A stretch of DNA of 64,000 bases, from the NCBI GenBank assembly GCA_049968235.1, contig JBMFRC010000008.1, positions 79,157 to 143,156 on the forward strand. Direction: 5' to 3'. Made by a program: the position numbers and the translations under genes. This stretch comes from Candidatus Hydrogenedens sp. Its GTDB lineage: Bacteria; Hydrogenedentota; Hydrogenedentia; Hydrogenedentales; Hydrogenedentaceae. The notes beneath the pieces were generated by a model that did not search any database, was not told the DNA's origin, and saw nothing but the letters and a program-made list of their open reading frames with translations. This document shows, piece by piece, positions 7,901 through 28,235 of the stretch (position 1 is its first letter; the number at the start of each line of letters is the position of its first letter).

Positions 7901-10113
7901 TGAGGTGCCGGGAAGGTTTGCTGAGGGTTATTTTTCAGTCGCTCCAATTCCGTGGCAGGACGAAGGTCTGTGGGGTCAAGTTCTATCGCTTTCTGAAAAT
8001 ATTCAATTGCTTTCTCATGATTTCCTAACCCTAAATATGCCCTACCCATACAGGTATGAGCAAATGAATCATTGGGTAATAATTGAAATGCCTTTTCCAA
8101 CGCTGAAATAGCTGATTCATATTGCCCTCGATTAATGTGAATATCAGCAATATTAATCCAGTTCCATGGGTATTGTTCCGGTTTCAATTCAACAGCCTTT
8201 GTAAACGCTTCGATGGCAAGGTCCCATTCCTGTAATTCTTTATAGGACATTCCAAGATAGGAGTATGCCTGTGCATAACCGGGGTCAAGTTGAATCACAT
8301 GTTTGCAGGTATCAACTGCAGACCAATAATCGTTAACTCGCCAGAATTCCAGAGCCATAGCACATAAATCTTCTAATAAGGCTACCGATTTCTTGTTGTA
8401 CGTTTTCACAGAGTCCTGTAAAGAAAATATCTGGTGGTAAACAACCACTCGCTGAATGCCAGCAAATTCCTCTGCTTTGTAAATAATCCCTTTTTCCTTT
8501 AAATATTTTTCAAAATGATAAAGCGGTGCAGACTCAAAATAATCCCCCTGAACAACAATCCATAATTTTGCATTGGGTCTTCGTACTGGCAACAGTTTTG
8601 TAATCAGAAATTCAGCAATTTCGGCAGTATTCTCAAACTGCGAACCATAACAAACAACATTGGGCACAGGACCTAAATTGTATAGGAAAACACGCTTCCA
8701 TAATTCATTGTTTACAAGGATAATGTCTTCCGCTTTTGCATTATGCTTGATAAATACACCTGCATTCTTCCAATCGGTGTGTTGCGGTTTCCCGAGGATT
8801 AAACTACCCTGGTACAAATACAAAAGTAGAAATGCGGTAAAGAGCAGTCGTTTTACCCATTTCTTACTTTCCACGCTATTAATAGTATAGCCAATAATCA
8901 GATACAGGGCAATCGAACTATGGAGAGTATATCTTGGCATAATACAGGGTCGCCATAAGTGCGAAATAAAGTATAAAAATAAAGGAGGAAATAGCCACCA
9001 GATACAATAGAGCAGGATAAAAGAATTATTTGTTTTTCCAATATTATTCGACTTTAATTCCTTATTATCTTTTTCCCTGAAAAAATAAGTCCAGATAGCC
9101 CCGACAAGGCAAAAGACATATAAAACTGCCATTACCCCCCCTATAAAATATTGCTGTGATACAATAATCCGTGCAGTTTCTTTGCTAAAAAAATGCATCC
9201 AGAAATCGGGTTCCGCACGAAGTTGGTAAGTCCAACCAATACAATCATCGGCAACAAGGTCGCCTATAAATTCACGGAGTGTCGGTATCTTCATCCAGGA
9301 AGAGGTCATATCCGGCGACCAAAAATTAATAGTTAGAATATACAACACAGAAGGTAGTGAAATAAGGAACAGAGGAATAGCCCATTTCATCAGAAAAAGG
9401 ATTTCTTCCCTCAAATAATCTTTATAAAACCACTCATTCGGTCTCCCATTGCGGTATCTCCAGGCACGAATGAGCAATCGGTCTACCAGTAAATATACCC
9501 CCTGAACCATAACAACCAGAGTCGCAAAGGGATGTGTCCAGAGAAGGAGAAATGTGATGATAAGGTAATAGATAAATGTTCTTCGTCTCTGTTCGCGATA
9601 CCAATATATAAAAAAAAGCATGGACAGAATAGATAGGAGGGTGAACAAACTATACATTCGTATCTCCTGTGAAAACTGCCGATGTATAGGCGACAGAGCC
9701 ACGAGAAGACAGGCAATAAGCCCCGTAGAAGCATTAAAACTTATATTTCCTAAAATGTATGTGCTATAAATAACCGTCAATCCAATAAAGACCGAAAGAA
9801 GACGGAGAGAATAATATGATTCATCAATATAGGTATGCCAAAAATATTCAATAGAATAATATAAAGGCATGGTAGCAGGGTCCATAGAGCGATTCTTTAT
9901 CAAGAAATGCAGGATATTCATTGAAGGTTCATAATGAACACCCTGAGCCCAACGCGTAAAATTCGGCGAAGATTCATACTCAGCCAGCGGTTTCAGGTGA
10001 ACAACACTACTAAATTCGTCCCACCATATAGATTCGTAACTTAAACCTACAGAACGATATAAATAACCTGCAAGTAAAATTAAAAATAAATATAGAAATA
10101 CTTTTGAATTCAT
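7897..10113 (-). CDS. membrane GT-C-fold glycosyltransferase (ArnT/PMT-like) with C-terminal TPR repeats, 738 aa
   Basis: The N-terminal ~520 aa are multi-TM with ArnT/PMT-like loops. The C-terminal ~200 aa carry TPR repeats (…YAQAYSYLGMSYKELQEWDLAIEAFTKAVELKP…). Confidence 0.7.
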   Translation of the reverse strand: MNSKVFLYLFLILLAGYLYRSVGLSYESIWWDEFSSVVHLKPLAEYESSPNFTRWAQGVHYEPSMNILHFLIKNRSMDPATMPLYYSIEYFWHTYIDESYYSLRLLSVFIGLTVIYSTYILGNISFNASTGLIACLLVALSPIHRQFSQEIRMYSLFTLLSILSMLFFIYWYREQRRRTFIYYLIITFLLLWTHPFATLVVMVQGVYLLVDRLLIRAWRYRNGRPNEWFYKDYLREEILFLMKWAIPLFLISLPSVLYILTINFWSPDMTSSWMKIPTLREFIGDLVADDCIGWTYQLRAEPDFWMHFFSKETARIIVSQQYFIGGVMAVLYVFCLVGAIWTYFFREKDNKELKSNNIGKTNNSFILLYCIWWLFPPLFLYFISHLWRPCIMPRYTLHSSIALYLIIGYTINSVESKKWVKRLLFTAFLLLYLYQGSLILGKPQHTDWKNAGVFIKHNAKAEDIILVNNELWKRVFLYNLGPVPNVVCYGSQFENTAEIAEFLITKLLPVRRPNAKLWIVVQGDYFESAPLYHFEKYLKEKGIIYKAEEFAGIQRVVVYHQIFSLQDSVKTYNKKSVALLEDLCAMALEFWRVNDYWSAVDTCKHVIQLDPGYAQAYSYLGMSYKELQEWDLAIEAFTKAVELKPEQYPWNWINIADIHINRGQYESAISALEKAFQLLPNDSFAHTCMGRAYLGLGNHEKAIEYFQKAIELDPTDLRPATELERLKNNPQQTFPAPQ

Positions 10114-10249
10114 ACCTAAGTTTTCGTTATCGCTTTATAGCCAAATCTTTTTATACCTCAAATTATTTATAATAACATATCATAATAAGGATTGAATATT
10201 TGATGAACGCATAATAGATGCTTTTTAATTAAACCTATGGAGTACGCCG

Positions 10250-11467
10250 ATGCGATCGTTTTTAAAAAATATATTATTAGCATTAGGGTCAATACTTGTG
10301 GTTCTTATATTGACCATGGTATTGGACCGACTGTTAGGGAACATCCTGCCCAAGCCATTTCCTGAAGGCACACATGATTTAATTTTTCCTCCCTTATCGC
10401 GACAGGAATTCGCCTCAGTTGATTTTAAATATGTGGTAGAAACTAATTCATTAGGGATTCGGGACCGAGAAATACAAAGACCTAAAAGCAGTAATAGTTA
10501 CCGCATCATAGCAGTTGGTGATTCCTATACTTACGGTTGGGGCGTGAATATTGAGGAAACCTGGCTCCGTGGACTGGAACAAAAACTGTTATTGGAGAAC
10601 AAACAGATTGAAACTGTGAATTTAGGCAAACCCGGGACAGGTCCTCCTTTCTATGCAGAAATTACCCGCACTATTGTCCCCTTACTTGAACCCGATTTGA
10701 TACTGGTCGGAATTTTACAGGGAAACGATATTGCTTCTTCAGGAACGGAAGGGTTAGAGCAAATGAGTTCGGGATTGGTCCGCTGGACAAAATTATTTTA
10801 CCCAAACTTTGTCCGTACAGTAGAAATGATGCAATTGACGCGTTCTCTTGAAACGCGGACACAGGAGCGACCCCCAGAAAAAACAACCGCAGAAGACAAC
10901 GCAAAATGGTCTGCCAATACCGCAAAGGATTTTTATGAAAAAATGTCCGCAGAGGAAAAACAAAGATTTGATAATTTCGATGCCGAAGTAAAACAAGCAT
11001 TTTTTGATGGGCTATTAAATCCTTATATGATTGACCTTGCATTGAAGAACAAACACATTTATACACTAACATTAAACCCTGATGACCCATGGATTCAGCA
11101 ATGTATTGGGAATATGGCAAAAGCATTACAAATCATAAAATCGGTAGCAAGTCAAAACGATGCTCAAGTTGCTGTCGTTAGTATCCCGGATGGCCCGTAT
11201 GTGAATGAGGTTGCATGGAAAAATATTCAGCGTGTTGGATTCGATGTAGTTCCAGACATGCTAACTTCCGATGCACCCGATAAAGTTATTCAGATTGCTT
11301 GTGAAAAGGTAGGTATCCCCTGTTATACCGTCTCCTTTGCATTTCGCCAGAGAAAACAAGACCCCAACTTGTTCTTTACACTGGATGGGCATTTGACCGC
11401 TGAAGGACATAAATTATTAGCAGAGACGCTTGCTCCTCAACTACAGAAGTGGCTAACCAAAAAATGA
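10250..11467 (+). CDS. SGNH/GDSL-family hydrolase with N-terminal TM/signal anchor
   Basis: YRIIAVGDSYTYGWGV (GDS block), NLGKPGTG, LQGNDIAS (GxND), DGHLTAEGH (DxxH). It ends at TGA 11465-11467. Confidence 0.6.
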   Translation: MRSFLKNILLALGSILVVLILTMVLDRLLGNILPKPFPEGTHDLIFPPLSRQEFASVDFKYVVETNSLGIRDREIQRPKSSNSYRIIAVGDSYTYGWGVNIEETWLRGLEQKLLLENKQIETVNLGKPGTGPPFYAEITRTIVPLLEPDLILVGILQGNDIASSGTEGLEQMSSGLVRWTKLFYPNFVRTVEMMQLTRSLETRTQERPPEKTTAEDNAKWSANTAKDFYEKMSAEEKQRFDNFDAEVKQAFFDGLLNPYMIDLALKNKHIYTLTLNPDDPWIQQCIGNMAKALQIIKSVASQNDAQVAVVSIPDGPYVNEVAWKNIQRVGFDVVPDMLTSDAPDKVIQIACEKVGIPCYTVSFAFRQRKQDPNLFFTLDGHLTAEGHKLLAETLAPQLQKWLTKK

Positions 11468-12677: not shown

Positions 12678-14684
12678 TTATTGGGGGGTAAGTTTTAATA
12701 AAGCGACACCATGACGGGGAATAGATGTGGAGAAACCTTTTTGGTAAACTCCCAAATCCTTTTGTCTCCATAAATCCCTGACTTTTTGATTTTCTACCAG
12801 TCCCAATTCCTTCCATTGTACGGCTACATTTTGTTCAATCTCATCCAGATTAAACAAACCTATAGCAGTGGAACCATCGAAAAGTGACTTTAACCATATT
12901 TCATAACATTTTTCTTTATTAATAATTATAGGATGTCCTTGAATACCCTTTGAATCCTGATTAATTTCGATAACTTCAGGATTACAGAGCACATTTTTTG
13001 TAAATTCATCCAATCGAGTCATATCTCCACTATAAAAAAGAGGAGAAGCCATAAGACACCATAAAGACATGTAAGAATATTGTTCACTAGGAGTTAGGGG
13101 GCAGGATTTAGGCTCACCCATCACACTGGCATCTCCGCTATAACCGATGAGAATATAATCTGGGTCATTCCATGCACCGGGACCTGCATATTCCCAGTAT
13201 CGAGCGTTTCTGCGTGCGACCTCATGATATTGTAATAACTCAAAACCGAGGTCGCCCGCTGTTCGCCAGCAATTTCCACCCACTTCTTTACCCCATTTCC
13301 AGACCTGTCCCATACCATACTGACACAAGTTAAAGACAATATCGCGGTCTAATTTCTTTAAGATAACTCCCATTTCTCTATAAGGTTTCTTTAGATTCTC
13401 AATTTTTTTTGGGGATAGGATATCTGTATAAGAACACCAGTCATATTTCAAAAAATCGAAACCCCAGTCTGCAAATTGTTTGGCATCTTGTTCCTCATGT
13501 CCATAGGTTCCTGTAAAGCCAGCACAGGTTTTAGGTCCCGGTGAGGTATATATGCCTGCACGAAGCCCTTTAGAATGAATATATGCCGTTAATCCCTTCA
13601 TATCAGGAAAGTATTTGTTGGGTAGAATATTCCCACTATCATCTCGTGCAGGACCGACACGCATCGGGTCACGATGATTTTCTGCATTTGCCCAGCAATC
13701 GTCAATACTTACATACTGGTAACCTACATCTGCCATACCGGATGAAACCATCAGGTCCGCAGATTGTTTCATTATATCCTCCGTAATTCTATCGTAATGT
13801 GTATACCAATGATTCCAGCCCATTGGGGGTGTTAATGCCAGTGTATCTCCAACCACAATATTTAAATAATTCTGGTCGCTACCATATTGGTTTTGTGCCA
13901 CGATTTTAACTGTATAGTTCTTCGGTTCACGACTTATAATAGTCCCATGTATAATTCCATCCGGGTCCACCGTTAATCCTTCAGGTAAACCTTCTAATTG
14001 AAACTGTATAGGTCTTTCTCCTGTACAGGGAATACGGAATATAAAAGGAGAGCCTGGTCGAACACCCGTAACACGCGGGCTATTTATTCTCGGAGAACGA
14101 GCGGGTGTCGGAGTAAGAATATAAGTTTCCTCTTCTGGTTTCATTACAAGTTCTGGTTTTCTCTCTGTCATTATAAAAACCGCTTCTGCTATATCGACAT
14201 GGTCATAAGAAATATCATCATAAGCATCATTAATAGAAATAGTGAAATAGGATATTCCCCGTAAATCAATAGAAACTTTTTCGGGTTCTTCTCCTCCTTT
14301 AAAAGTTCGCGTTGCATATAACAATTTGTTATCACCAAAAAATCGGGCGATTATAGACCCATTCCCTTCTGTTTCATCATCAACTCCTATAATGGCTTCA
14401 AATTTTGATGCATAACCATTGAGTTGAACATAGAAAACCACATTTGCATGTGTGCCAACACCACGATTATATATTGTTCCATGTAATTTTATCGGATTTC
14501 CCTGACAGGATAGATTTTTTTTAGGATGTTCTGCCCAGCCTTGTTTAACAATTTTCAAGTTCAGGTCATCTAAATATGTTATAGCCTCCTCGCAGTAACT
14601 ATTCCATATACAAAAAAACGCAATACAAATTACAGAGATGAATACAAATAGATGGAACTTGAAATTTGATGGAGCAAAAAACAT
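12678..14684 (-). CDS. GH27 alpha-galactosidase with N-terminal NPCBM-type carbohydrate-binding domain; secreted
   Basis: Signal peptide. An NPCBM-like block lies near the N-terminus. GH27 signatures are present: PPMGWNHWY, SIDDCWA, FLKYDWC. Confidence 0.8.
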   Translation of the reverse strand: MFFAPSNFKFHLFVFISVICIAFFCIWNSYCEEAITYLDDLNLKIVKQGWAEHPKKNLSCQGNPIKLHGTIYNRGVGTHANVVFYVQLNGYASKFEAIIGVDDETEGNGSIIARFFGDNKLLYATRTFKGGEEPEKVSIDLRGISYFTISINDAYDDISYDHVDIAEAVFIMTERKPELVMKPEEETYILTPTPARSPRINSPRVTGVRPGSPFIFRIPCTGERPIQFQLEGLPEGLTVDPDGIIHGTIISREPKNYTVKIVAQNQYGSDQNYLNIVVGDTLALTPPMGWNHWYTHYDRITEDIMKQSADLMVSSGMADVGYQYVSIDDCWANAENHRDPMRVGPARDDSGNILPNKYFPDMKGLTAYIHSKGLRAGIYTSPGPKTCAGFTGTYGHEEQDAKQFADWGFDFLKYDWCSYTDILSPKKIENLKKPYREMGVILKKLDRDIVFNLCQYGMGQVWKWGKEVGGNCWRTAGDLGFELLQYHEVARRNARYWEYAGPGAWNDPDYILIGYSGDASVMGEPKSCPLTPSEQYSYMSLWCLMASPLFYSGDMTRLDEFTKNVLCNPEVIEINQDSKGIQGHPIIINKEKCYEIWLKSLFDGSTAIGLFNLDEIEQNVAVQWKELGLVENQKVRDLWRQKDLGVYQKGFSTSIPRHGVALLKLTPQ

Positions 14685-15261: not shown

Positions 15262-16146
15262 TTAATTTTGTGTGCATTCGGATTCTAATTGAGCAATTCG
15301 GTCTGGATAATCCGATAATATCCAATCCACTTCCGAAAAAATATACTTTTTTATATCCTCAGATTTGTTTACCGTGAATACAAGGATTTGAATCCCCTTT
15401 TCTTTTATTTTTTTCATTTCTTCAGGGGTTATCTTAAAATTTTCTGCCATTTTTTCATTGATGGCTAACATTTGAGCAGGAGGTGTGTAATTTGACCAAT
15501 TCTTACTTCGTAATGCAGACAAAAAACTAAGGGCATCAGAAACTGTAAAACAAGTTTTAATTTGAGGGTATTCTTTTCTTATTTTTTCAATTACTTGTGG
15601 ATGAACCGATGCGAGATAAACTCTGTCCTGCATATTTCGACTGATAATAGGTTCAACAATAGGTGCGAGGTCTTCTGTAAACGGTTTTATTTCAAACAAA
15701 AACATGTGCTCTGGAAATGCTTCCAATACTTCGTTCAGAGTTGGAACCGTAATTCCCTTACCACGAAATGGAAAAGTTTGCCCTCCATCATTAGAAAATC
15801 GGTATCCTGCATCTAACTCTTTAATTTCCTTCAAGGTTTTTTCTTTAACGGGACCCTGCCCATTGGTTGTACGGTCCACAGTAGTATCATGCATAAGAAT
15901 AGCAACATTATCCGCTGTAATCTGAACATCTCCCTCTAACAAAAAATTCCTCCAACAAGAAACCGCTTGCTGATAAGCATAAAGAGTATTTTCAGGTAAT
16001 AAAGCCTTACCCCCACGATGTGCAGCAACTTTTGTTTTACAGAATTTATCCTGTGTAAGTTTTTCATCATTATTCCCAAAAGATACTATCGTATAAATAC
16101 AAAGGAACAAAAGTGTTAAAAATAAAATAAGATGAGTTCTATTCAT
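15262..16146 (-). CDS. glycerophosphodiester phosphodiesterase (GDPD family), secreted
   Basis: Signal peptide, then HRGG...PENTL...E.DV..T.D...V..HD, the GDPD signature. Confidence 0.75.
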
Positions 16147-16254
16147 AATACAAAACCTCGTTTTTGATTATATTGACAAAAAAACCGTAAACTAAGTTTC
16201 ATGATAAAATATATGTATACTAAGTGCAAATAACAAATTGGAAAGGAGTTTACT

Positions 16255-17079
16255 ATGGAACAGTGGTTCAGTAATCAGGTGGTAATTGTTACAGGTGCAG
16301 GAAGAGGGATTGGTTTTTCAACTGCTAAATTGTTCGCTCAATATGGAGCCAGCGTGGTGATTAATGATTATGACGCAAACTGTGCCGATAATGCGGCTTG
16401 CGAACTCAAAAATGCAGGATACAAAGTATTGTCCGTTCCCGGAGATGTAACCGACCCGCAATATCCAGACATGCTAATGAAAAAGACCGTAGAAACTTTT
16501 GGTAAGGTGAATGTAATTGTAAACAATGCGGGGTATACATGGGATGGCATGATACATAAAATGAGTGATAAACAATACATGGCAATGTTAGAAATTCATA
16601 ATGTTGCTCCCTTCCGTATCATACGAGCAGCTTCTCCTTATATGCGTGAAGTAGCCAAGCAAGAAAAAGCAGAAGGTAAAACACCAGAACCGAGAAGTAT
16701 TGTCAATGTTTCTTCTCTTTCTGGCTTACATGGAAATACCGGGCAAGCCAATTATAGCACTGCTAAAAGCGGTATTGTGGGTTTAACAAAGACAGTAGCA
16801 AAGGAATGGGGACCATTTGGTATTCGTTGCAATGCAGTGGCGTTTGGTTTTATCGAGACGCGTTTAACCCAGGACCAGGAAAGTGGTGAACAAATAGAAG
16901 TAGAAGGTGAAAAAGTGCAATTGGGTATTCCATCGCATATGAAAGGAATGATAACCATGCTTATACCGTTAGGAAGACCCGGAACGCCAGACGAAGCAGC
17001 AGGAGCCATCGTTTTTCTTGCATCACCTCTGGCTTCATATATAACAGGTATTTGTCTTGAAGTTACAGGAGGATTATAA
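16255..17079 (+). CDS. short-chain dehydrogenase/reductase (SDR family)
   Basis: TGAGRGIG Rossmann motif, NNAG, and a YxxxK-type catalytic region. It ends 8 nt before the next gene. Confidence 0.85.
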   Translation: MEQWFSNQVVIVTGAGRGIGFSTAKLFAQYGASVVINDYDANCADNAACELKNAGYKVLSVPGDVTDPQYPDMLMKKTVETFGKVNVIVNNAGYTWDGMIHKMSDKQYMAMLEIHNVAPFRIIRAASPYMREVAKQEKAEGKTPEPRSIVNVSSLSGLHGNTGQANYSTAKSGIVGLTKTVAKEWGPFGIRCNAVAFGFIETRLTQDQESGEQIEVEGEKVQLGIPSHMKGMITMLIPLGRPGTPDEAAGAIVFLASPLASYITGICLEVTGGL

Positions 17080-17087
17080 GTTTAATA

Positions 17088-19172
17088 ATGATTCTTCGTG
17101 ACAACATACAACTGGTTCGAACTATTCCTGAACGGTGTCGTATTTGTTACACATGCGTTCGAGAATGTCCTGCTAAGGCTATTCGTGTGGTCCATGGACA
17201 GGCAGAAGTTATCCGTGAACGATGCATCGGTTGTGGAAATTGTGTAAAGGTCTGTAGTCAGCGTGCAAAAGAAATATATAGCCCGATTGAGAATGTTTTG
17301 CAATTATTAAAAGATAACAAACCATGTGTTGCGTTATTAGCACCGAGCTTCCCAGCAGAATTTACAGAGTGTTCTCCACATAAACTATGTTCTATCTTAA
17401 AACGATTTGGCTTTACCTATGTAGTAGAAGTAGGCTCAGGAGCCGACCTCGTTTCACGAGCCTACCGTCAATTATTAGCAGAAAATCCATCGCGTTCCTA
17501 TATTGCCACGACCTGTCCTGCGGTTGTCGCATACATCGAACGATATTTTCCTCAATTAATTCCATTTTTAGCTCCGATAGTATCACCAATGGTGGCTACT
17601 GCAAGAGCAGTCCGACGCATGTATGGAACGAATTTGTCCGTTGTGTTCATTGGTCCATGTATTGCCAAAAAAGGTGAAGCCCAATCCGAAGCATTAAGTG
17701 ATGAAGTAACAGAAGTCCTTACTTTTTCGGAAATGAGACAAATTTTAGATATGCACCTTCCGGAATGGGAACAGATTAATGAAGAACAAAACTTCGACCC
17801 ACCCATTTCCGGTCCGGGAAGCCTATTCCCTATAAGTCGCGGTCTAATACAATCCGCTTCAATTCCTGAAGATTTAACAACAGATAATGTTATTGTTGCG
17901 GAAGGTAGGTCAGATTTTGTAGAAGCAATAAGGGAATTTGACGAAGGACAATGCCGTCCCAATCTTTTGGAGATTTTAGCCTGTGAAGGTTGTATTATGG
18001 GACCCGGCTATTCCCAAAAAGCAACACTATACCGTAGACGAACTTATGTAAGCCAGTATGTTCGTGATAAACTTAAACATATTGATTGGCAGTTATGGCG
18101 GCAACAAATAGCCCTATTAGCACAAATCAACATGTCTCGTAAATATATCCCTTATGCACAACGAACTCCCGAACCTACCCCTTCACAAATCGAAGATATT
18201 ATGCATAATCTGGGTAAATTTAAACCTGAAGATGAATTGAATTGCGGTGCATGCGGTTATGACACTTGCATGGAACATGCTATTGCTATATATCACGGAC
18301 TGGCACAAACAGAAATGTGTCTGCCTTTTACTATTCAACGGTTAAGAGAAACTATCCAGAATCTTGCAGAATCCAATGAAAAACTGGAAAAAACGCAGGA
18401 AACTCTTATGCAAACAGAAAAACTTGCAAGTATTGGACAACTTGCCGCAGGAATTGCTCATGAACTAAACAATCCGTTAGGTGTTGTGCTTATGTATGCA
18501 CATCTTCTCCTGGATGAATATGGAACAGAAGAATCTTTGAAAGAAGATTTAAAGATGATTGCTACCCAGGCAGACCGCTGTAAGCGAATTGTCTCCGGAC
18601 TACTTCATTTTGCAAGACAGAATAAAATCTCGATAGAAACAACAAATATACCCAGGTTGATAGAACATGCATGCAAGCTGGTTATTATTCCATCTAATAT
18701 TCAGTTAAAAATAGCAGACCATATGCGAAATCCAATAGCAGAATTGGATAAAGAACAAATTACGCAGGTACTTACAAATCTAATAACCAATGCAATACAG
18801 GCGATGCCCAATGGTGGAACCTTAACCTTAATTACCGAAGATGCACCTGACGAAATTTATATAACTGTTGAAGATACCGGTACGGGTATCCCTAAGGAAA
18901 ACCTGCCCAAAATATTTGAGCCATTCTTTACCACAAAAGAAATGGGAAAAGGAACCGGAATGGGGCTTGCGATTACTTATGGAATTATAAAGATGCATCG
19001 TGGACAAATTACCGTAGAATCCAATGATAATCCTAAAGATGGACCTACGGGCACCCATTTCTACATTTCATTACCCCGATATGTAAGTTCTATCAATGGG
19101 ATTAAGGAAGTCGACATTAAAGAATGGTTTCACGAAGCAGAAATGATAGAGGATATGTCAAAACCTTCATAA
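17088..19172 (+). CDS. sensor histidine kinase: 2x[4Fe-4S] ferredoxin domain + sensory [FeFe]-hydrogenase-like H-domain + HisKA + HATPase_c
   Basis: [12 protein letters not shown] and [11 protein letters not shown] (two Cx2Cx2Cx3C motifs). H-domain motifs: L1 variant ATTCPAV (single Cys), L2 [11 protein letters not shown]3 [13 protein letters not shown]-terminal CGACGYDTC-x16-C motif (Cx2Cx4Cx16C). HisKA H-box [11 protein letters not shown] box [11 protein letters not shown]1 DTGTGI, G2 GTGMGL. RBS GGAGG upstream. Confidence 0.75.
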
Positions 19173-19195
19173 ATAATTAAGCGAGCAAGTAGTGT

Positions 19196-20362
19196 ATGAA
19201 GCAAGAAGTATTTCGTGTACTGGTTGTTGATGATGAACCCGGCATTCGTATTGGTGTCTCCCGTGTGCTCCAGAACTATTCCATTGAAATGCCAGAAGTA
19301 GAAACAAAAACATTATTTGAAGTAGAAGTTGTAGAAACCGCAGAAGAAGCTATCGAAAAAATTAAAGCAAAGCCTCCCCATATTCTACTGTTAGATAATA
19401 AACTTCCCGGAATGAGTGGGCTTGAAGCACTGGAAAAAATTGTTGCTATGAAACTATTGGAAACTTATACTGTTGTAATAACCGCATATGCCTCAATAGG
19501 AACCGCCGTTAAAGCCACAAAACATGGTGCCTATGATTTCTTACCCAAACCTTTTACTCCAACAGACCTTAAAAATACGATTCATAAAGTAGTAAAACAA
19601 TTAATCGTGGAACGCAAAGCGAGAGAATTAGCCAATGAGAAAAAACGGATTCGGTTTGAATTTATATCATTACTTGCCCATGAACTTAAAGCCCCTATAA
19701 ACGCAGTAGATGGTTATTTAAGAATTATAAAAGATATGAACATTGCGGATAATCCCCAACTCTGTCAGGACCTTGTAGAACGCTGTCTTATTCGAAATGA
19801 ATATATGCGGAAAATGATTAATGACCTATTAGACTTAACAAGAATTGAATCCGGACAAAAGGTAAGGAATATTGAAGAGGTCAATTTAAAAGATATCGCC
19901 CAAATGTCTATCGAAACATCGCAGGTAGAAGCACAAAAACGAAATATTACTATGACCCTTCATGCGGACGGACCAATCATGATAAAAGCAGACCAAAATG
20001 AAATGGAGATTATCCTCAATAATCTGGTGTCCAATGCAGTGAAGTATAACAAAGACAACGGTAAAGTTGATGTCTTTTTATCCCGGGAAGGGGATAAGAT
20101 TATATTACAGGTGAAGGACACCGGTATCGGAATGACTCCCGATGAATGTTCGCGTCTATTTCAGGATTTCGTCCGTATACGGAATAAAAAAACCGAGTCT
20201 ATTTTAGGGAGTGGACTGGGCTTGTCTACAGTAAAAAAATTAGCACAAATCTATGGAGGTGATGTATCTGTCCGTAGTACTCCTGATGAGGGAAGCACCT
20301 TTACTGTTGAATTACACGATTATGAAGAACCTGCGGAAAAACCTTCCATAATGGCAACTTAA
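19196..20362 (+). CDS. hybrid response regulator-histidine kinase (REC + HisKA + HATPase_c)
   Basis: REC: VLVVDDEPG, LLLDNKLPG, LPKPF. HisKA LAHELKAPINAV. HATPase N box NLVSNAVKYN, DTGIGM, and a GSGLGLS-type G box. Confidence 0.8.
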   Translation: MKQEVFRVLVVDDEPGIRIGVSRVLQNYSIEMPEVETKTLFEVEVVETAEEAIEKIKAKPPHILLLDNKLPGMSGLEALEKIVAMKLLETYTVVITAYASIGTAVKATKHGAYDFLPKPFTPTDLKNTIHKVVKQLIVERKARELANEKKRIRFEFISLLAHELKAPINAVDGYLRIIKDMNIADNPQLCQDLVERCLIRNEYMRKMINDLLDLTRIESGQKVRNIEEVNLKDIAQMSIETSQVEAQKRNITMTLHADGPIMIKADQNEMEIILNNLVSNAVKYNKDNGKVDVFLSREGDKIILQVKDTGIGMTPDECSRLFQDFVRIRNKKTESILGSGLGLSTVKKLAQIYGGDVSVRSTPDEGSTFTVELHDYEEPAEKPSIMAT

Positions 20363-21099
20363 TACTTCTCTTTATTCTTTTGTCTTTGAACCAGATTCCT
20401 TATATAAGTAATTTCCGCAGGAGTTAAATACCGCCATTTCCCTGTACGTAAGTTTCCCAGGTTTATACCAGCAAAAGAGATTCTTTTCAGGGAGGTTAGG
20501 GGGAAACCCACTGAATCACACATTCTTTTTACTTCTCGTTTTCTTCCCTCATGAATGGTTAATTGAATGGTGGACGACTTCAAGTTTTGCCGTAAAACTT
20601 TCACTTGAGCAGGACTGGTTTTCCCATCTTCAAGCATAACACCTTGTTCCAACTTTTTTACAGCAATAGTCGTTATAAAACCTTTTACAACCACAATATA
20701 GGTTTTAGGAATTTCATTACTGGGATGTAGCAACTTATTTGCCAGTTCCCCATCATTTGTAAGGAGTAAAGCACCCTCAACATCCAGATCTAACCTTCCG
20801 ACCGGGAATACTCTCACCTTCAGGTTTTTAATAAGGTCAATAACCGTAGGTCTGCCAAATTCATCATTGGTGGTAGTTACATATCCCTTCGGTTTATTGA
20901 GCAAGATATATACTTTTTCGGGGATTTTTAAAGAAACAGGTTTATTATCTAAAAAGACCCTATCCGTTTCAGGATTAATCTTTTGTCCCATAGAAGCGGG
21001 TAAACCGTTTACGGAAATTTTCCCTTCCTGAATAAAACGCTCAATTACCCGTCGTGAACCGATACCACATTCCGCAAGATATTTCTGTAATCTGACCAA
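20359..21099 (-). CDS. rluB: pseudouridine synthase, RsuA/RluB family, with S4 domain
   Basis: RLQKYLAECGIGSRR (S4 domain), LNKPKGYVTT, VGRLDLDVEGALLLTNDGELAN. Confidence 0.8.
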   Translation of the reverse strand: MVRLQKYLAECGIGSRRVIERFIQEGKISVNGLPASMGQKINPETDRVFLDNKPVSLKIPEKVYILLNKPKGYVTTTNDEFGRPTVIDLIKNLKVRVFPVGRLDLDVEGALLLTNDGELANKLLHPSNEIPKTYIVVVKGFITTIAVKKLEQGVMLEDGKTSPAQVKVLRQNLKSSTIQLTIHEGRKREVKRMCDSVGFPLTSLKRISFAGINLGNLRTGKWRYLTPAEITYIRNLVQRQKNKEKY

Positions 21100-21775: not shown

Positions 21776-22789
21776 TTATAGAGTCCTATCCATGATACCT
21801 ACAAGCGGTTTTATTTCATTCATCAACTTTTCAAATGTTTCCAGTTTCAAAGATTGAGCACCATCCGACAACGCTTCTGCAGGATTGGGATGAACTTCTA
21901 CAATAATACCATCCGCTCCTGCGGATACTGCCGCCCTTGACATTGGAATTACTAAATCCCATCTTCCACTGGCATGACTTGGGTCAATAACAACGGGTAA
22001 ATGGGAGTATTTTTTTACCAGAGGAACAGCCTGAATATCAAGGGTATTCCGTGTTTCTGTTTCAAAGGTTCTAATTCCGCGTTCACACATAATTACATTA
22101 GGATTCCCTTCTGCAATAATATATTCAGCAGACATAAGCCACTCATTAATTGTGGACATCATCCCCCGTTTTAACAATATCGGCTTAGTTAATTTGCCTA
22201 CTGCCCGAAGAAGCCCATAATTCTGCATATTTCGAGCACCTATCTGTATAATATCCGCATAATCTGCTACTACAGGAACCTGTTCCACAGTCATGGCTTC
22301 CGTAACTACGGGCAGGTCATACTTTTCGGAAGCCTCTTTTAACAAACGTAACCCTTCCAGTTCCATACCCTGAAAACTATATGGTGATGTCCGGGGTTTA
22401 TAAGCACCCCCTCGAAGAATATGGGCTCCACATTTCTTTACAAACTCTGCAGTTTGCATAATCTGTTCACGGGACTCTACCGCACAGGGTCCTGCCATAA
22501 TACAGAAAGATTTCGGTCCTATTCGGACTTTGCCAACTTGTATAACACTATCTTCTTTTTTAACTTCGCGACTTGCTAATTTATAAGGTTTTAAGACAGG
22601 CATCACTTTTTCTACATGGGGTAATGCCTCTAATGCTAAAACCCCCTGTAGAATCCGCTCATCACCAATTACTGCTATAACTGTTTTTTCAACACCCTCA
22701 AGAACATGGGGTTTTAGCCCTAATTCTTCGACACGGGTTACAACATAAGATACATCTTCGGGTTTTCTACTTGCCATTACTATAATCAT
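21776..22789 (-). CDS. 3-deoxy-7-phosphoheptulonate (DAHP) synthase, class I-beta, with N-terminal ferredoxin-like regulatory domain
   Basis: An ~85-aa N-terminal domain, then [13 protein letters not shown]...[17 protein letters not shown]...IGARNMQN...DPSHASG, typical of the I-beta AroA/KdsA family. Confidence 0.75.
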
Positions 22790-23052: not shown

Positions 23053-25221
23053 TTATTCAGGACGGGTAGGTGTTTCAGCGTGAATACGGACACGGTAAAA
23101 GTGGGCAAGAGCATTAATATAGAGAGCCAGAGTTTCAATGGAGATTCCAGCAGAATTCATATCCGGGTTTGAAGAAGATAAGTCGAGATAAGGAGCATCT
23201 GAATTTTTAGAAGTAGCACGAATTCCAAAAGGGATTACACCTACTAATTTTCTTGAATCTATGCCTGTTTTAACATAAGGATGAGCATAAACAGGTAGAT
23301 TTTTCGATCCTAATCCTTCAATAAAGCAAATCCCATAAGGATTTACCCCCAATACCCAGTTTATATGGTCAAAAAATAATCTCTTTGTTGTATCTTCGGG
23401 TATAAACCGAAATGCCTTCCCTGCTAATTGGGCAATTTGGAGGATATATAAATTATTCCCTTTTACGCCTTCTTCACTTTTTGTGGTTATCCCGAAGAAA
23501 TCCACTTCGGGTTTCCATTTCATTGGGCAAATTCCGAAAGGATTCTGATTTGCTTGTTCCGAATAAAGTTGAATTGCATTTTGCAAAGATTGAACTAATT
23601 CATAAGTTTTATTCTCGTAGGTAAAGGCATCATATCTGGGAATTGCTTCAGATACATTAAGAATATTCTCCGGCACACACGACTGTATAACAGATATGTT
23701 TTTCTCTATATTTTTTATTTCTTCAAGGTAAACAAGAGCAGAGAACAAACCCCAATTTTTCTTCCCCTGTACTATCACAGATTGGGTCAATTTCTCTGCC
23801 TTGTTAATATAAGGGCTTTCAGGGTTTATCTTCGACGATAAATAAGCAACATTCCCGAGAGCAGATATAACAAACTCTTCATCAGATACAGTTTCTTCAA
23901 TGGGTCTTTCGTCTGCTGTATTTAATTGATTATCTGTTTCTTCTTCAGGTTTCCTGATACTATTTTCTGGTTTTGAAAAGATATTGCCCAGTAGTGTACC
24001 ATCCTCTTTGATACGGTGGACAATATATTCAGCACCCCAATCTATCTCTTCACGCAACTTTGAAGCCAGGTCCTTATCCTTTAACAAACGCCACATGCAA
24101 ATATTGTAACTCTCAGCAAGCAGGTTCAAACAAAGAGCAGACTTCGTTTTGCTGTATGTCTCTCCATCATGCCACCCTCCTTTAAGTGAGATACCTTCAA
24201 ATGAATCATCTGCATGACAAAGTTCATGAATACCTTCTATTTTTGTGCCACAACGATGTAATCGAATTCCCTCCAATACTCTCGGAACCGTTTTTCCCCA
24301 GAGAAGGTCTTTGCCGATTAGAAAAGAGGGGCTGTAATACCTTTTTTCTCCAATAATTACCACAATCCGATAATTGCCTTCCTCGTTATAATCCGAAAAA
24401 TCTGCACGACAGAACCATTTTCCCCAGTCCGATTTGTGAATACCAACAATTCGCGACGGCTCACCGAAATGTATTTCTCGTATTTCACGGTCAGAGTCCC
24501 CTAAAAGGTACGAAGTTAGCCCTTCAGGTTTAAAATTTGTCGCAAGAATACATGTTTTGGGATACAGTAGGTCATATCCTACTTGATTAACAAATATATC
24601 AATAGTTTTAGGTTTTTCAATAATACCTGTAAAATTGGCTTCATCCCACCATACCGTCCCTGCCGTATTAAATTCGGTAATTAATCGGAATCGTACTGCA
24701 ATTGTACCCGAAGGGACAAATGTCTCTGATAGCATAAATCGTTTCCATTCAGAACCCGCATTTTCTATTAATCGTAACTCTTTCTTTTCTATAGATTCTT
24801 TGTTATTTAGCCATTCTATAACGACCTTTGATGGGAATGTTCCTCGATAAAAAATGCTACCTGTAATAGATACCATACCTGCGGGAATAGGTATATCTTC
24901 TGTCTTAACACTTACCTCTCCGTTACCTTCAACACGAAGAGAACTTTTACCGGAAAGATAAGTTTCATTATCCAGAGAAATTTTGTTTTCAGTATTGACG
25001 GAAGAACATTTCCAGTTATTTAATAGAGATACTGTATCCGTATCCTTCTCAAAAAGTTCAAAACCTCCATTGTAAACCAGGGGAACCGTTTCCCAGATAA
25101 AATCTTCATTATCATTTATAGGTGATGCGGATTCTCCACAAAGAGCAGGAAAAGCAGAGAATAATAGAGAACCTGCAATAAACAAAAAAAGAATTGATTT
25201 TTTTTCTAAAATCATGTTCAT
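23053..25221 (-). CDS. secreted (alpha/alpha)6 glycoside hydrolase, GH9-like, with N-terminal Ig/CBM-like domains
   Basis: Signal peptide. A CelD_N-like Ig block comes first. GGWHDGE resembles the GH9 GGWYDAGD motif. The C-terminal NWVLGVNPYGICFIEGLG...YAHP is GH9-like. The family assignment is tentative. Confidence 0.45.
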   Translation of the reverse strand: MNMILEKKSILFLFIAGSLLFSAFPALCGESASPINDNEDFIWETVPLVYNGGFELFEKDTDTVSLLNNWKCSSVNTENKISLDNETYLSGKSSLRVEGNGEVSVKTEDIPIPAGMVSITGSIFYRGTFPSKVVIEWLNNKESIEKKELRLIENAGSEWKRFMLSETFVPSGTIAVRFRLITEFNTAGTVWWDEANFTGIIEKPKTIDIFVNQVGYDLLYPKTCILATNFKPEGLTSYLLGDSDREIREIHFGEPSRIVGIHKSDWGKWFCRADFSDYNEEGNYRIVVIIGEKRYYSPSFLIGKDLLWGKTVPRVLEGIRLHRCGTKIEGIHELCHADDSFEGISLKGGWHDGETYSKTKSALCLNLLAESYNICMWRLLKDKDLASKLREEIDWGAEYIVHRIKEDGTLLGNIFSKPENSIRKPEEETDNQLNTADERPIEETVSDEEFVISALGNVAYLSSKINPESPYINKAEKLTQSVIVQGKKNWGLFSALVYLEEIKNIEKNISVIQSCVPENILNVSEAIPRYDAFTYENKTYELVQSLQNAIQLYSEQANQNPFGICPMKWKPEVDFFGITTKSEEGVKGNNLYILQIAQLAGKAFRFIPEDTTKRLFFDHINWVLGVNPYGICFIEGLGSKNLPVYAHPYVKTGIDSRKLVGVIPFGIRATSKNSDAPYLDLSSSNPDMNSAGISIETLALYINALAHFYRVRIHAETPTRPE

Positions 25222-25249: not shown

Positions 25250-26020
25250 TTATGTTATCTGAAATGGAGGTTCGTTTTGTATTTCTTGAAAGAGTTCATT
25301 TGCATAATCTTCTTGTTCTTCAGTTCCGGTAATAGCAAACCATAATGCCCCTTCCGCACCACCAACTCCACCACCCCCTATTAATTCTGTATCAGCACCG
25401 GTGAGTAGTTTTATAGCATCTATTTCTGTGAAAACTTCACCCGGAACAGGGAAAAACCGAGGACCATTTCCAGAAGCATGATTTATTTTCAATGCAATTG
25501 TGTCAAGATTTCCAGAAATTCGTTTTTCAAGACCAACAGGGATAATGAGTTTTACCCGACGCCCTATTACCGCTGGTATTGTAACGCCAATAGTTCCACC
25601 TTGAGGATGTGCAACAAAAATTCCAGCCCGTCGATTATTTATATCTAGTGCATTTGCCCCTTTCAGAATAATATCAAATTTAGTTAATTGTTGAGCCACA
25701 TCAAAAAGGTTCTTCCCTCGTTCCCAATTTCCTTTGACAATTACAACATCACCGGGAAAAGTCGATTCATCGGGTAATCTTCCCATTTCTGTTAGTGAAT
25801 AAAATGGAGGTAATGTAATACCCCTGAAAAAGCGTTTTTTCGGAAAGGGTTCATCATACCCTAAATATTTCAATATTTCCTCCGCGATATATCCATTTGT
25901 TGTTCCTGCAACAATAACTATCGTATGAGCATTTATTGCTCTCTGCACTTCCGGATGGCGAACTATTCCCCTTGCTATCAGCCGTTTACATGCAGACACT
26001 GTCAACGCTACTTGCAACAT
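25250..26020 (-). CDS. conserved hypothetical protein (glycine-rich GGGGVGGAEG motif)
   Basis: Clean 256-aa ORF ending in TAA. I do not recognise a family. Confidence 0.3.
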   Translation of the reverse strand: MLQVALTVSACKRLIARGIVRHPEVQRAINAHTIVIVAGTTNGYIAEEILKYLGYDEPFPKKRFFRGITLPPFYSLTEMGRLPDESTFPGDVVIVKGNWERGKNLFDVAQQLTKFDIILKGANALDINNRRAGIFVAHPQGGTIGVTIPAVIGRRVKLIIPVGLEKRISGNLDTIALKINHASGNGPRFFPVPGEVFTEIDAIKLLTGADTELIGGGGVGGAEGALWFAITGTEEQEDYANELFQEIQNEPPFQIT

Positions 26021-26179
26021 AAAAAACTTCTCCTTTTACTAATTTTTTGAAACAGGAATAGGTAGTAGTATATTTTATCCTAATATAAGAGATTATAAAA
26101 GGTAAGCCTCTTACTCCTTAAATTTTAACATTTGTGTAGAAAAAAGAGAAACCACGTTTTCAATGCTTTACTGGTATAA

Positions 26180-27040
<861 letters not shown>

Positions 27041-27382
27041 AATTTAATTGAAAAAGGGTATATCAAAATTGGGGAGTTCTTATATTCCAAAGATGGTAAA
27101 TACATCGCATGTGTTTTAGCAGATGTATCTATTCTTTACGATAACATAGCAGGTTCCATTCATAAGATAAGTGCTAAAATATTAGGAAAAGAAAATAATA
27201 ACGGCTGGACTTATTGGCATGTAAAAAGAGAAAATAAGATAATTTGTATTGACCAATTAAGATATGAATATGAAAAGAAATATCTTACGAGTTCTTTTGA
27301 TTATGGTATTTTTGACTTTGAAAAAGAATCTTCACTAACAGTCAAGGATGAAAGTTTCTTATATGAAAATAATGGAATATAA
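27041..27382 (+). other. in-frame continuation of the methyltransferase after the TGA, 113 codons encoding a CcrM-type C-terminal DNA-binding domain
   Basis: Same frame as 26213..27040 and open to TAA 27380-27382. It encodes …GSIHKISAKILGKENNNGWTYWHVK…, matching CcrM CTD motifs (GSIHKIGA…NGWTYWHF) as I recall them. Confidence 0.6.
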
Positions 27383-28235
27383 CGAATTTAAAATGATATT
27401 AAATAAAAACATATTCGAACGCTCAAAGGCGGACTTGCTTGAAAAAATTGCGAATTCTCCTTCAAGATATATTGGACTTTTTAGACCTACCAAACCAAAA
27501 GGTAAAATTCTTCAAGATATATTACAATCATACGAAATCCGTTTTGGAAATGCATTTGAGGAAGTTTTCGAAAAATATTTAGGATACATGGGATTTGAAA
27601 TACTAAAAAAGGTATATGTTGACAAAAACAAAGGTATTAAAAATATATTGTGCGTAGACCAATGTTTCAGAAAAGAAGAGAAAGTATATTTCCTTGAACA
27701 AAAGGTTAGAGATGACCATGATTCTTCCAAAAAAAGAGGGCAAATAAAAAATTTTGAGGAAAAATTAAATATAATGCTATCAAAATTTTCAGAAAAAGAA
27801 CTCGTTGGTATTTTTTATTTCTTAGACCCTGAAATTGTTAAAAATAAACTCTATTATGAAAATGAATTAGAGACAATGAAAAGGGACTACAATGTAGAAA
27901 CACATTTATTCTATGGTGAAAAATTATTTGAATTTTTAGGCTATCCCAGTGTATGGAACGAAATTCTTAACTACCTTTCCCAATGGAAAAGAGAAATACC
28001 AGACATGCCAGAAATCAATTTTGACATAGACTATGAAAACACTTTCAATGAAATTAAAGATTTAAAACCACTCATTTTTAGGAGTCTACTTACTGACGAT
28101 ACAATATACGATGAAATTATTTGCACATTATTTCCTGATGGGAGAACTTTTAAATTATTAAGACAATATTTTATGCTTAAAAAGGGTTCTATTTACGAAA
28201 GATTAGTTAATTTGATTGACAAACGTATAAAATAA
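27348..28235 (+). CDS. hypothetical protein; candidate cognate type II restriction endonuclease
   Basis: A 295-aa ORF immediately downstream of and overlapping the methyltransferase. It is very AT-rich (roughly 28-30% GC) and Lys/Glu/Asn-rich. I do not recognise the family. Confidence 0.3.
   Translation: MKVSYMKIMEYNEFKMILNKNIFERSKADLLEKIANSPSRYIGLFRPTKPKGKILQDILQSYEIRFGNAFEEVFEKYLGYMGFEILKKVYVDKNKGIKNILCVDQCFRKEEKVYFLEQKVRDDHDSSKKRGQIKNFEEKLNIMLSKFSEKELVGIFYFLDPEIVKNKLYYENELETMKRDYNVETHLFYGEKLFEFLGYPSVWNEILNYLSQWKREIPDMPEINFDIDYENTFNEIKDLKPLIFRSLLTDDTIYDEIICTLFPDGRTFKLLRQYFMLKKGSIYERLVNLIDKRIK

Follow-up and report, generated by a model that had tools for sequence, protein, structure and literature searches.

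Can an [FeFe]-hydrogenase domain serve as the direct input of a histidine kinase within one polypeptide, and what would such a protein sense? These questions are raised by a gene in a 64,000-nt stretch of Candidatus Hydrogenedens sp. (contig JBMFRC010000008.1, positions 79,157 to 143,156; the whole analysed stretch is called the window below). Three co-oriented open reading frames (ORFs) in the ORF list of the window encode a short-chain dehydrogenase (SDR), a 694-aa sensor kinase and a 388-aa kinase with a receiver (REC) domain. Judged from its sequence, the sensor half of the 694-aa protein is a complete [FeFe]-hydrogenase module of non-catalytic appearance. The explanation preferred here, at slightly better than even confidence, is a one-polypeptide HydS-derived sensor kinase that signals H2, or a redox state coupled to H2, to a second kinase gated by a receiver. 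The sensor and its partner comprise the following features:

17088..19172, + strand: 694-aa sensor histidine kinase with [FeFe]-hydrogenase-like input (ORF, Pfam)
17118..17264, + strand: N-terminal 2x[4Fe-4S] ferredoxin domain, aa 11-59 (Pfam Fer4 families; Cys17, 20, 23 and 27 plus Cys46, 49, 52 and 56)
17319..18005, + strand: H-domain (Fe_hyd_lg_C), aa 78-306 (Pfam, Foldseek)
17502..17525, + strand: L1 motif IATTCPAV, aligned to SCCPAW of TmHydA
17652..17681, + strand: L2 motif, aligned on MPCTAKKFEA of solved hydrogenases
17970..18008, + strand: L3 motif, aligned on EVMACNYGCVGGGG of solved hydrogenases with a one-residue gap
18243..18320, + strand: C-terminal Cx2Cx4Cx16C [4Fe-4S] motif, Cys386, 389, 394 and 411 (Pfam PF04060)
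18321..18521, + strand: continuous signalling helix, aa 412-478 (DSSP on the AlphaFold2 model), with the H-box His458 at nt 18459-18461
18435..19079, + strand: kinase core, HisKA with the dimerization and histidine phosphotransfer (DHp) domain at aa 450-511 plus HATPase_c at aa 554-664, with N, G1, F and G2 boxes (Pfam)
19196..20362, + strand: partner REC-HisKA-HATPase hybrid kinase, 388 aa (Pfam, sequence)

Pfam places Fer4_10 at aa 11-56 of the 694-aa protein (1e-8), Fe_hyd_lg_C (PF02906) at aa 78-306 (8e-45, profile positions 1-245 of 245), the FeS family PF04060 at aa 384-413 (4e-9, holding the Cx2Cx4Cx16C motif), HisKA at aa 450-511 (5e-16) and HATPase_c at aa 554-664 (1e-26). The architecture that an earlier note had read from the letters alone, namely ferredoxin domain, H-domain, Cx2Cx4Cx16C motif, HisKA and HATPase_c, is confirmed by these matches in every part, and the E-values of the sensor, partner and SDR domains are far beyond chance. 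The Cx2Cx4Cx16C motif, described for HydS, is a signature of group C/D sensory hydrogenases (PMC8163306), and its combination with an N-terminal 2x[4Fe-4S] domain defines the HydS-type groups C/D (PMC8163306, PMC13104023). The 694-aa protein shows this layout, with the two elements flanking the H-domain, and the HydS-type C-terminal cluster motif proposed earlier is borne out by Cys386, Cys389, Cys394 and Cys411. The AlphaFold2 (AF2) model has a mean predicted local distance difference test (pLDDT) score of 85.7, with the sensor mostly above 90. Over the first ~430 residues of the model, the best Foldseek matches are catalytic [FeFe]-hydrogenases, with DdHydAB, CbA5H, TkHydA, TmHydA and CpI at E 1e-22 to 1e-18 and target-normalised template modelling (TM) scores of 0.5-0.68, and the NCBIfam group A hydrogenase model gave 95.8 bits against a cut-off of 406. 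A Nar1-like or unrelated Cys-rich domain is rejected, because L1-L3 align to H-cluster ligands and both profile and fold match hydrogenases.

The three motifs were placed by phmmer alignments to solved [FeFe]-hydrogenases, and conservation was counted in an alignment of 119 homologues with 52-92% identity. In L1, Cys143 stands at the [4Fe-4S]H ligand position (CpI C300), and both C143 and P144 occur in 119/119 sequences. The proton-relay position (CpI C299) is occupied by Thr142; the family carries Thr in 82, Ser in 34 and Asn in three sequences, so that the loss of the relay cysteine noted earlier is seen as Thr/Ser in 116/119. In L2, Cys191 equals CpI C355, Gly189 replaces M353, and Lys194 and Glu197 equal K358 and E361, respectively; G189, P190, C191, K194 and E197 are each present in all 119. 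In L3, Cys299 and Cys302 lie at the positions of CpI C499 and C503 with the spacing Cx2C (CEGC), and Leu297 replaces CpI M497 (Leu in 112/119 homologues). The earlier assignment of L1, L2 and L3 was correct in that the motifs align to H-cluster ligand positions; for L3, the ligand cysteines do align, and the one-residue-shorter Cx2C spacing had been overlooked. The protein thus possesses the four cysteines (at CpI C300, C355, C499 and C503) by which the H-domain superfamily is recognised, and lacks the relay Cys C299 and the Met353/Met497 pair of catalytic group A enzymes, with Thr142, Gly189 and Leu297 in their places. All 16 predicted cluster cysteines (eight ferredoxin, four H-cluster, four C-terminal) are invariant in 119/119, and non-ligand cysteines vary among homologues with the exception of Cys498. 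The [2Fe] pocket is conserved as well: Ala85-Pro86-Ser87 and Ser166-Pro167-Met168 are each found in 119/119 and Phe247 in 114/119, while the distances C143-C191 (48) and C394-C411 (17) are fixed in all sequences. TmHydS and TamHydS bind an H-cluster despite changes at the same second-sphere positions (PMC8163306, PMC10055695), and the resemblance of the C299/M353/M497 substitutions to those of these two proteins supports the view that the 694-aa protein may do so, too.

The connection between sensor and kinase is a helix that, in the AF2 model, begins one residue after the last cluster ligand Cys411 and passes His458 into DHp helix 1; this helix and the next span residues 412-478 and 482-510. 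The helical link into an intact HisKA/HATPase kinase that the earlier note had described is therefore seen in both the AF2 helix and the Pfam matches, with His458 as the H-box histidine. Cys411 and His458 lie 47 aa apart in 115/119 homologues and 40 aa apart in the remaining four, and in distant direct fusions the distance amounts to 33, 40, 47, 54 or 68 aa, with 26 of 29 differing from 47 by exact multiples of seven. Heptad quantisation of this kind is expected of a coiled-coil signalling helix that is sensitive to register. Among 65 sequences, H458, N564, N568, D596, G598, G600, F610, G620, G622 and G624 are invariant, and the H-box, DHp hairpin and N/G1/F/G2 boxes are those of a class I (HisKA) sensor kinase. 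Autophosphorylation and transfer to a receiver Asp are predicted, with Asp67 of the partner as the candidate acceptor. Pfam detects no PAS domain in the 694-aa protein, in which the helix and then HisKA stand in the place of PAS. No transmembrane segment is present either (the Kyte-Doolittle(19) maximum of 1.59 lies within the globular H-domain), the partner kinase is likewise without a membrane segment, and the 694-aa protein is presumably a cytoplasmic, dimeric sensor histidine kinase. A further position in DHp helix 2 stands out: Cys498 (nt 18579-18581, 'ADRCKRI') is not a ligand, yet 117/119 homologues keep it, and a role as a thiol-based redox input or in a dimer contact is conceivable.

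The downstream gene was correctly described earlier as a REC-HisKA-HATPase protein: Pfam finds Response_reg at aa 8-129, HisKA at 155-220 and HATPase_c at 266-374, with the receiver Asp67 at nt 19394-19396 and His162 in the H-box. The term 'multistep phosphorelay' proved too loose, since no histidine phosphotransfer (Hpt) domain is present and the partner has the look of a second kinase gated by its receiver. Its identity to the partner in the hydrogenase-linked locus L006 is 55%, against 54-56% for the sensors; as partner and sensor have diverged equally, the pair is orthologous.

A fusion of this kind had been implied to be rare and novel, which does not hold: it is common, it has already been catalogued, and it was noted in Hydrogenedentota in 2024. 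The 120 best clusters of a search with the sensor half (aa 1-437), at 52-92% identity, come from Hydrogenedentota, Planctomycetota, Verrucomicrobiota, Lentisphaerota and others, and all but two short entries are ~640-710 aa long with HisKA and HATPase_c. When one genome per GTDB species was scanned, at least 584 species had a relative; the best 80 loci cover more than 15 phyla and comprise 78 kinase fusions, the other two being cut by contig ends. A search seeded from Bacteroidota added another 120 clusters with the same domain set, save one truncated entry; all of these are proteins from metagenome-assembled genomes (MAGs), and no cultured host is among them. Source annotations already carry the name 'signal transduction histidine kinase/iron only hydrogenase large subunit-like protein'. 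Two publications bear on the family directly. HydDB introduced a putative 'histidine kinase-linked' sensory class, group C1, in 2016, defined by co-transcription and sequence clustering and not by fusion (PMC5037454); classifier assignment apart, the 694-aa protein is linked to a histidine kinase both through its fused HisKA/HATPase_c and through the second kinase. The 2024 survey reports Hydrogenedentota group C proteins with HATPase_C or His-kinase domains, many of them encoded beside group A3 bifurcating hydrogenases, some beside [NiFe] enzymes and some beside neither (PMC11406978). It also describes BfuT sub-type V (C3), which has a His-kinase domain and is encoded downstream of bfuA, and it is the sole authority on which Caldithrix abyssi WP_006928132.1 is named here as a member from a cultured host (PMC11406978).

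Gene context was counted in the best 80 species-representative loci, with the loci that have enough flanking sequence as denominators. In these and in five sampled long contigs, a stereotyped order was seen, consisting of Rex, hydC, hydB, hydA, the sensor kinase, a small stand-alone receiver and the REC-HisKA-HATPase gene; often the cluster continues with hydE, hydG, an aspartase-like gene and hydF. The counts are:

hydA immediately upstream of the sensor: 57 of 69 loci
hydC, hydB and hydA all present: 46 of 52 loci
REC-kinase within 1 kb downstream: 58 of 66 loci
stand-alone receiver adjacent: 45 of 66 loci
hydE, hydF or hydG within 10 kb: 20 of 47 loci
Rex present: 37 of 52 loci

This order matches the 'BfuT downstream of bfuA, with His-kinase domain' arrangement in PMC11406978. 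Two loci, L009 and L071, have the sensor kinase adjoining an NAD-linked [NiFe] (Hox-type) operon with Complex1_51K, Fer2/NADH-G, Oxidored_q6 and HoxH, and L071 additionally holds a hydCBA cluster; a position beside a [NiFe] operon fits a sensor of H2 better than a component of a single enzyme. The earlier suggestion of H2 as a putative ligand thereby gains real support from gene context in other species. H2 sensing by the 694-aa protein itself is plausible. In six Bacteroidales loci (L055, L070, L077, L080, L081 and L082), a second sensor-like gene lies on the minus strand ~4.7-5 kb upstream of the sensor and is divergent from hydC-hydB-hydA, with the kinase-fused member downstream of hydA; two bfuT genes are described for Bacteroidota, matching these six loci (PMC11406978). 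Apparent 942-955-aa 'sensor' ORFs in L071 and L085 were rejected as fusions, since the longest-ORF rule had let them overlap the 3' end of hydA.

The mechanism that we infer covers which cofactors are bound, H2 as the signal, the direction in which the kinase is regulated, the partner in phosphotransfer and the final output. The input would consist of a ferredoxin electron relay, an H-domain with four H-cluster cysteines and a C-terminal [4Fe-4S] cluster, and would be slow or non-catalytic. Binding or oxidation of H2 at the H-cluster would alter the H-domain and the C-terminal cluster domain in redox state or conformation. Cys411 would cap the register-locked coiled-coil helix that leads to the DHp His458, so that mechanical transmission could switch between kinase and phosphatase activity. 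The phosphoryl group would pass to Asp67 of the co-encoded REC-HisKA-HATPase protein, acting as a receiver-gated second kinase, and in most other genomes also to the small stand-alone receiver. As the family normally sits between hydCBA and hydEFG, its ancestral job would be the tuning of hydrogen metabolism, and in the lineage of the window the sensor-partner pair would have moved off the hydrogenase operon to a place behind an SDR gene.

Several observations weigh against this explanation. First, L3 has the spacing Cx2C, whereas every characterised H-cluster site has Cx3C. Second, no hydrogenase, maturase or Rex gene was found within at least 10 kb around the locus of the window or its close relatives (L001-L004 and L010), nor anywhere in the 64-kb window; hydA, adjacent in 57/69 family loci, is thus absent beside these copies. 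Third, the gene-cluster association fits equally well a sensor of the ferredoxin/NADH redox state handled by the hydrogenase. Fourth, H2 does not reduce TamHydS's C-terminal cluster (PMC13104023), which makes a redox relay via this cluster doubtful, and it is for this reason that conformational coupling, with a mechanical lever on the DHp, is proposed. In addition, canonical P1-P3 motifs were hard to find in the Hydrogenedentota C1 set, according to PMC11406978, although that set may or may not include the kinase-fused family, and no paper characterising any kinase-fused member was found.

The alternative that survives best is a Fe-S or redox sensor without the [2Fe] subcluster, in which the H-site would hold a cubane alone and the kinase would report reduction of the ferredoxin (Fd) or NAD(H) pool, or Fe-S integrity, via four cubane clusters, much as other Fe-S redox sensors do; we regard it as possible but doubtful. 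The L3 spacing, which departs from all characterised H-cluster sites, is the main reason why it stays alive. The absence of the proton-relay Cys also suits it, as do the loci of the window type together with L037 and L058, which have no hydrogenase or maturase within ~10 kb, and the unresponsiveness of the TamHydS C-terminal cluster to H2. The context of a bifurcating hydrogenase and Rex (37/52) would be suitable for a sensor of the Fd/NADH pool, too. An empty [2Fe] pocket, however, is hard to reconcile with the invariance, in more than 15 phyla, of the APS and SP motifs, Lys194, Glu197 and Phe247, whose sole importance lies in holding the [2Fe] subsite with its CN/CO ligands. Moreover, hydE, hydF or hydG is encoded in the same cluster in 20/47 loci, and sensory hydrogenases with comparable second-sphere substitutions do bind an H-cluster.

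How unusual the L3 spacing is was followed into wider samples. CxGC is invariant in 119/119 homologues, and the canonical CxxxC is replaced by CEGC in the 694-aa protein, while the HydA encoded in related loci keeps CPGGC. A 2024 Cell survey required CxxxC to accept an [FeFe] hydrogenase (PMC11216029), a filter by which the Cx2C clade would be discarded. An exhaustive search gave 4978 matches at E <= 1e-3, of which the 150 best 50%-identity representatives were taken and their L3 spacing read from the alignment. Approximately 60 Cx3C proteins share a tight length of 565-590 aa and are PAS-type HydS by Pfam; ~92 Cx2C proteins have variable C-terminal extensions, with HisKA-HATPase, PAS-HisKA-HATPase, a sigma54 activator plus helix-turn-helix (HTH) domain (13/36 sampled) or GGDEF (4/36 sampled) as outputs. 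A rough neighbour-joining tree built from the H-domain has a single split that separates all 92 genuine Cx2C sequences from PAS-type HydS and HydA, with only moderate support (the exact split in 2/100 bootstraps, F1 >= 0.95 in 58/100). A single origin of the one-residue L3 deletion is suggested by this sequence comparison, and Cx2C appears to mark a clade whose outputs (kinase, sigma54 activator or GGDEF) are fused directly, apart from PAS-type HydS. Three representatives (P0195, P0235 and P0249) have Cx3C, are 755-764 aa long and group with the Cx2C clade; because they are long enough for fused outputs, output-domain fusion may have preceded the L3 deletion. Tentatively, and as a possible but doubtful reading, the Cx2C clade can be viewed as a distinct, unrecognised hydrogenase-derived signalling group with a non-canonical cofactor in a remodelled L3 (the cofactor may be an altered cubane-[2Fe] linkage, or the cubane alone), which would sense something other than or beyond H2 and drive its output by purely mechanical means, through the register-locked helix that a cluster ligand anchors.

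H-clusters react with O2 and CO, so that an O2 or CO sensor is conceivable in which the reactive H-cluster would act as a switch shutting down or protecting anaerobic hydrogen metabolism. TamHydS forms a distinct stable O2 product and has an altered CO affinity (PMC8163306), and Hydrogenedentota are predicted to be facultative anaerobes in PMC11406978. Nevertheless, this explanation is improbable: the sequence has no specific feature indicative of O2 or CO, the conserved neighbours are hydrogenase structural and maturation genes and not oxidative-stress genes, and a cofactor that is damaged irreversibly is ill suited to repeated sensing. Similarly improbable is a structural or regulatory 'T subunit' of HydABC that would act by protein contact (e.g. 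by gating electron flow) with a secondary or vestigial kinase, as suggested by the name 'bfuT' that PMC11406978 gives to the bfuA-adjacent gene counted as part of the cluster, and by the tight adjacency to hydA (gap ~3-140 nt in many loci), but contradicted by the invariance of all catalytic kinase boxes and the phospho-His, by the dedicated REC-kinase partner in 58/66 loci, and by the persistence of the sensor-partner pair without an adjacent hydrogenase in the lineage of the window and beside [NiFe] hydrogenases.

The 694-aa protein can be placed among known systems as follows. With TmHydS, of the PAS-type group C (M2f), it shares the 2x[4Fe-4S] domain, the four H-cluster cysteines, the lack of a relay Cys, Gly at CpI M353 and the Cx2Cx4Cx16C motif, and, like TmHydS, most members of the family outside the lineage of the window are encoded with group A hydrogenases. 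Unlike TmHydS, it has no PAS domain, and its C-terminal cluster domain leads through one helix to HisKA/HATPase. The kinase-fused family has Cx2C in L3 where the PAS-type relatives sampled have Cx3C, Thr/Ser instead of Ala at CpI C299 and Leu instead of Ser at M497; H-cluster binding by TmHydS has been shown by experiment, whereas the kinase-fused family is known from sequence. TamHydS (Thermoanaerobacter mathranii, group D/M2e) has the same three Fe-S modules, Leu at CpI M497 and no PAS domain, but Ser instead of Gly at M353, and a neighbouring separate kinase-like ATPase gene has been proposed as its signal carrier (PMC8163306), in place of the kinase fused here. HydDB C1 and the Hydrogenedentota group C proteins embody the same concept of an [FeFe] sensor-histidine kinase (PMC5037454, PMC11406978), and for the latter the phylum and the order hydC-hydB-hydA-sensor also match, with some copies away from A3 and some beside [NiFe] genes (PMC11406978). 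A functional analogue is HoxBC with HoxJ ([NiFe] group 2b), in which a low-activity H2-sensing hydrogenase controls a histidine kinase and thereby hydrogenase expression (PMC5037454, PMC8163306); its metal site and fold are unrelated, and it consists of separate proteins communicating via a PAS-like domain, in contrast to one polypeptide with a coiled coil. The closest kinase cores are the class I kinases ZraS, AtoS and NtrB: the NCBIfam models score 205 bits for AtoS and 177 bits for ZraS at aa 430-665, all below the equivalog cut-offs, and the ZraS cytoplasmic domain 9jfj has 33% identity and a TM score of 0.74 to the kinase core (Foldseek). Here, the input module is wholly different, and no membrane anchor or periplasmic domain is present.

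Besides the counts of invariant residues and of neighbouring genes, two features are new, namely the signature of the Cx2C clade and a heptad-locked helix anchored on a cluster ligand; no description of either was found in the literature, and the accessible portions of PMC5037454 and PMC11406978 mention neither the Cx2C spacing nor a heptad-locked linker. The biochemical literature covers the PAS-type TmHydS and the domain-less TamHydS, and treats neither the sensory role nor the signalling route as proven (PMC8163306, PMC13104023, PMC8924675, PMC10055695). Physiological evidence for H2 sensing by HydS-type proteins is thin (PMC8924675), and the question of how HydS signal transduction is achieved has been posed directly (PMC8163306). 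The favoured idea, a redox role of the C-terminal cluster, has recently lost ground (PMC13104023). A sensor fused to its kinase offers a direct quantitative readout, i.e. autophosphorylation with versus without H2, and a simple structural hypothesis, the capping of the signalling helix by a cluster ligand. In fermentative and syntrophic uncultured phyla the family is abundant, usually inside bifurcating-hydrogenase clusters, and on both grounds it is probably a main route by which H2 metabolism is regulated in these organisms. Detached from hydrogenase genes, the copy in the window is an ordinary and less informative member.

One cluster of a family member holds a different hydrogenase-like regulator just after hydEFG (L007:19777-21369, +). 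An RsbW-like HATPase_c_2 domain at its N-terminus is followed by 2x Fer4, an H-domain that is degenerate, and a cluster of Cys at the C-terminus; its L2 reads 'TCPSQR', without Lys, and its L3 CDEGC. It may represent the HATPase_C-bearing 'C1' type in which the motifs were not found by PMC11406978.

In the window, the gene preceding the sensor is:

16255..17079, + strand: SDR gene, FabG-like short-chain dehydrogenase (Pfam adh_short, 2e-50)

The positions of the ORFs agree with those given earlier, including the gap of 8 nt between the SDR and sensor kinase genes, which are probably co-transcribed. The SDR gene does end 8 nt upstream, but this adjacency is kept only in very close relatives, being seen in those 84-92% identical (L001-L004 and L010) and in 1/80 species representatives, and it is probably incidental to the function of the family. 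The sensor kinase and partner genes are 23 nt apart, and the 388-aa partner ORF overlaps the end of a convergent pseudouridine-synthase gene. No stand-alone receiver was found at this locus or in its close relatives (L001-L004 and L010). An identical 694-aa protein is present in the NCBI MAG GCA_049969095.1, and the 90% cluster to which it belongs bears the name Candidatus Hydrogenedens/Hydrogenedentes. Across the 64-kb window, no homologue of HydA, HydB, HydC, HydE, HydF, HydG or HoxH was found, which bears out the earlier statement that maturases are absent from it, and neither Rex nor a stand-alone receiver was detected. The sole radical-SAM gene of the window (41937-43397, +) was considered as a maturase and rejected, as it encodes a B12-binding radical-SAM protein with DUF4080 and is not a HydE/HydG homologue. 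Scans of 15900-20700 for promoters (13 promoter-like sites versus 16 expected) and terminators (seven terminator-like sites versus 3.8 expected) were uninformative, with none convincingly placed.

Elsewhere in the window, positions 26001-28000 have a guanine-cytosine (GC) content of 0.298 compared to ~0.38 in the remainder and include a DNA-methyltransferase-like ORF (26213-27040); on the matching MAG contig, a HinfI-family match lies beside the methyltransferase-like ORF, and the region is probably an acquired restriction-modification module. Two genes of the 3-deoxy-D-arabino-heptulosonate 7-phosphate (DAHP) synthase family occur within 20 kb of each other (21776-22789, -, and 40210-41289, -), the former bearing an N-terminal ferredoxin-like DAHP_snth_FXD domain. 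Finally, four successive genes that match GDSL/SGNH hydrolases weakly (4842-11467) are accompanied by large secreted glycoside-hydrolase-like proteins (12678-14684, 23053-25221 and 37594-39609), a setting consistent with a polysaccharide-degrading lifestyle.

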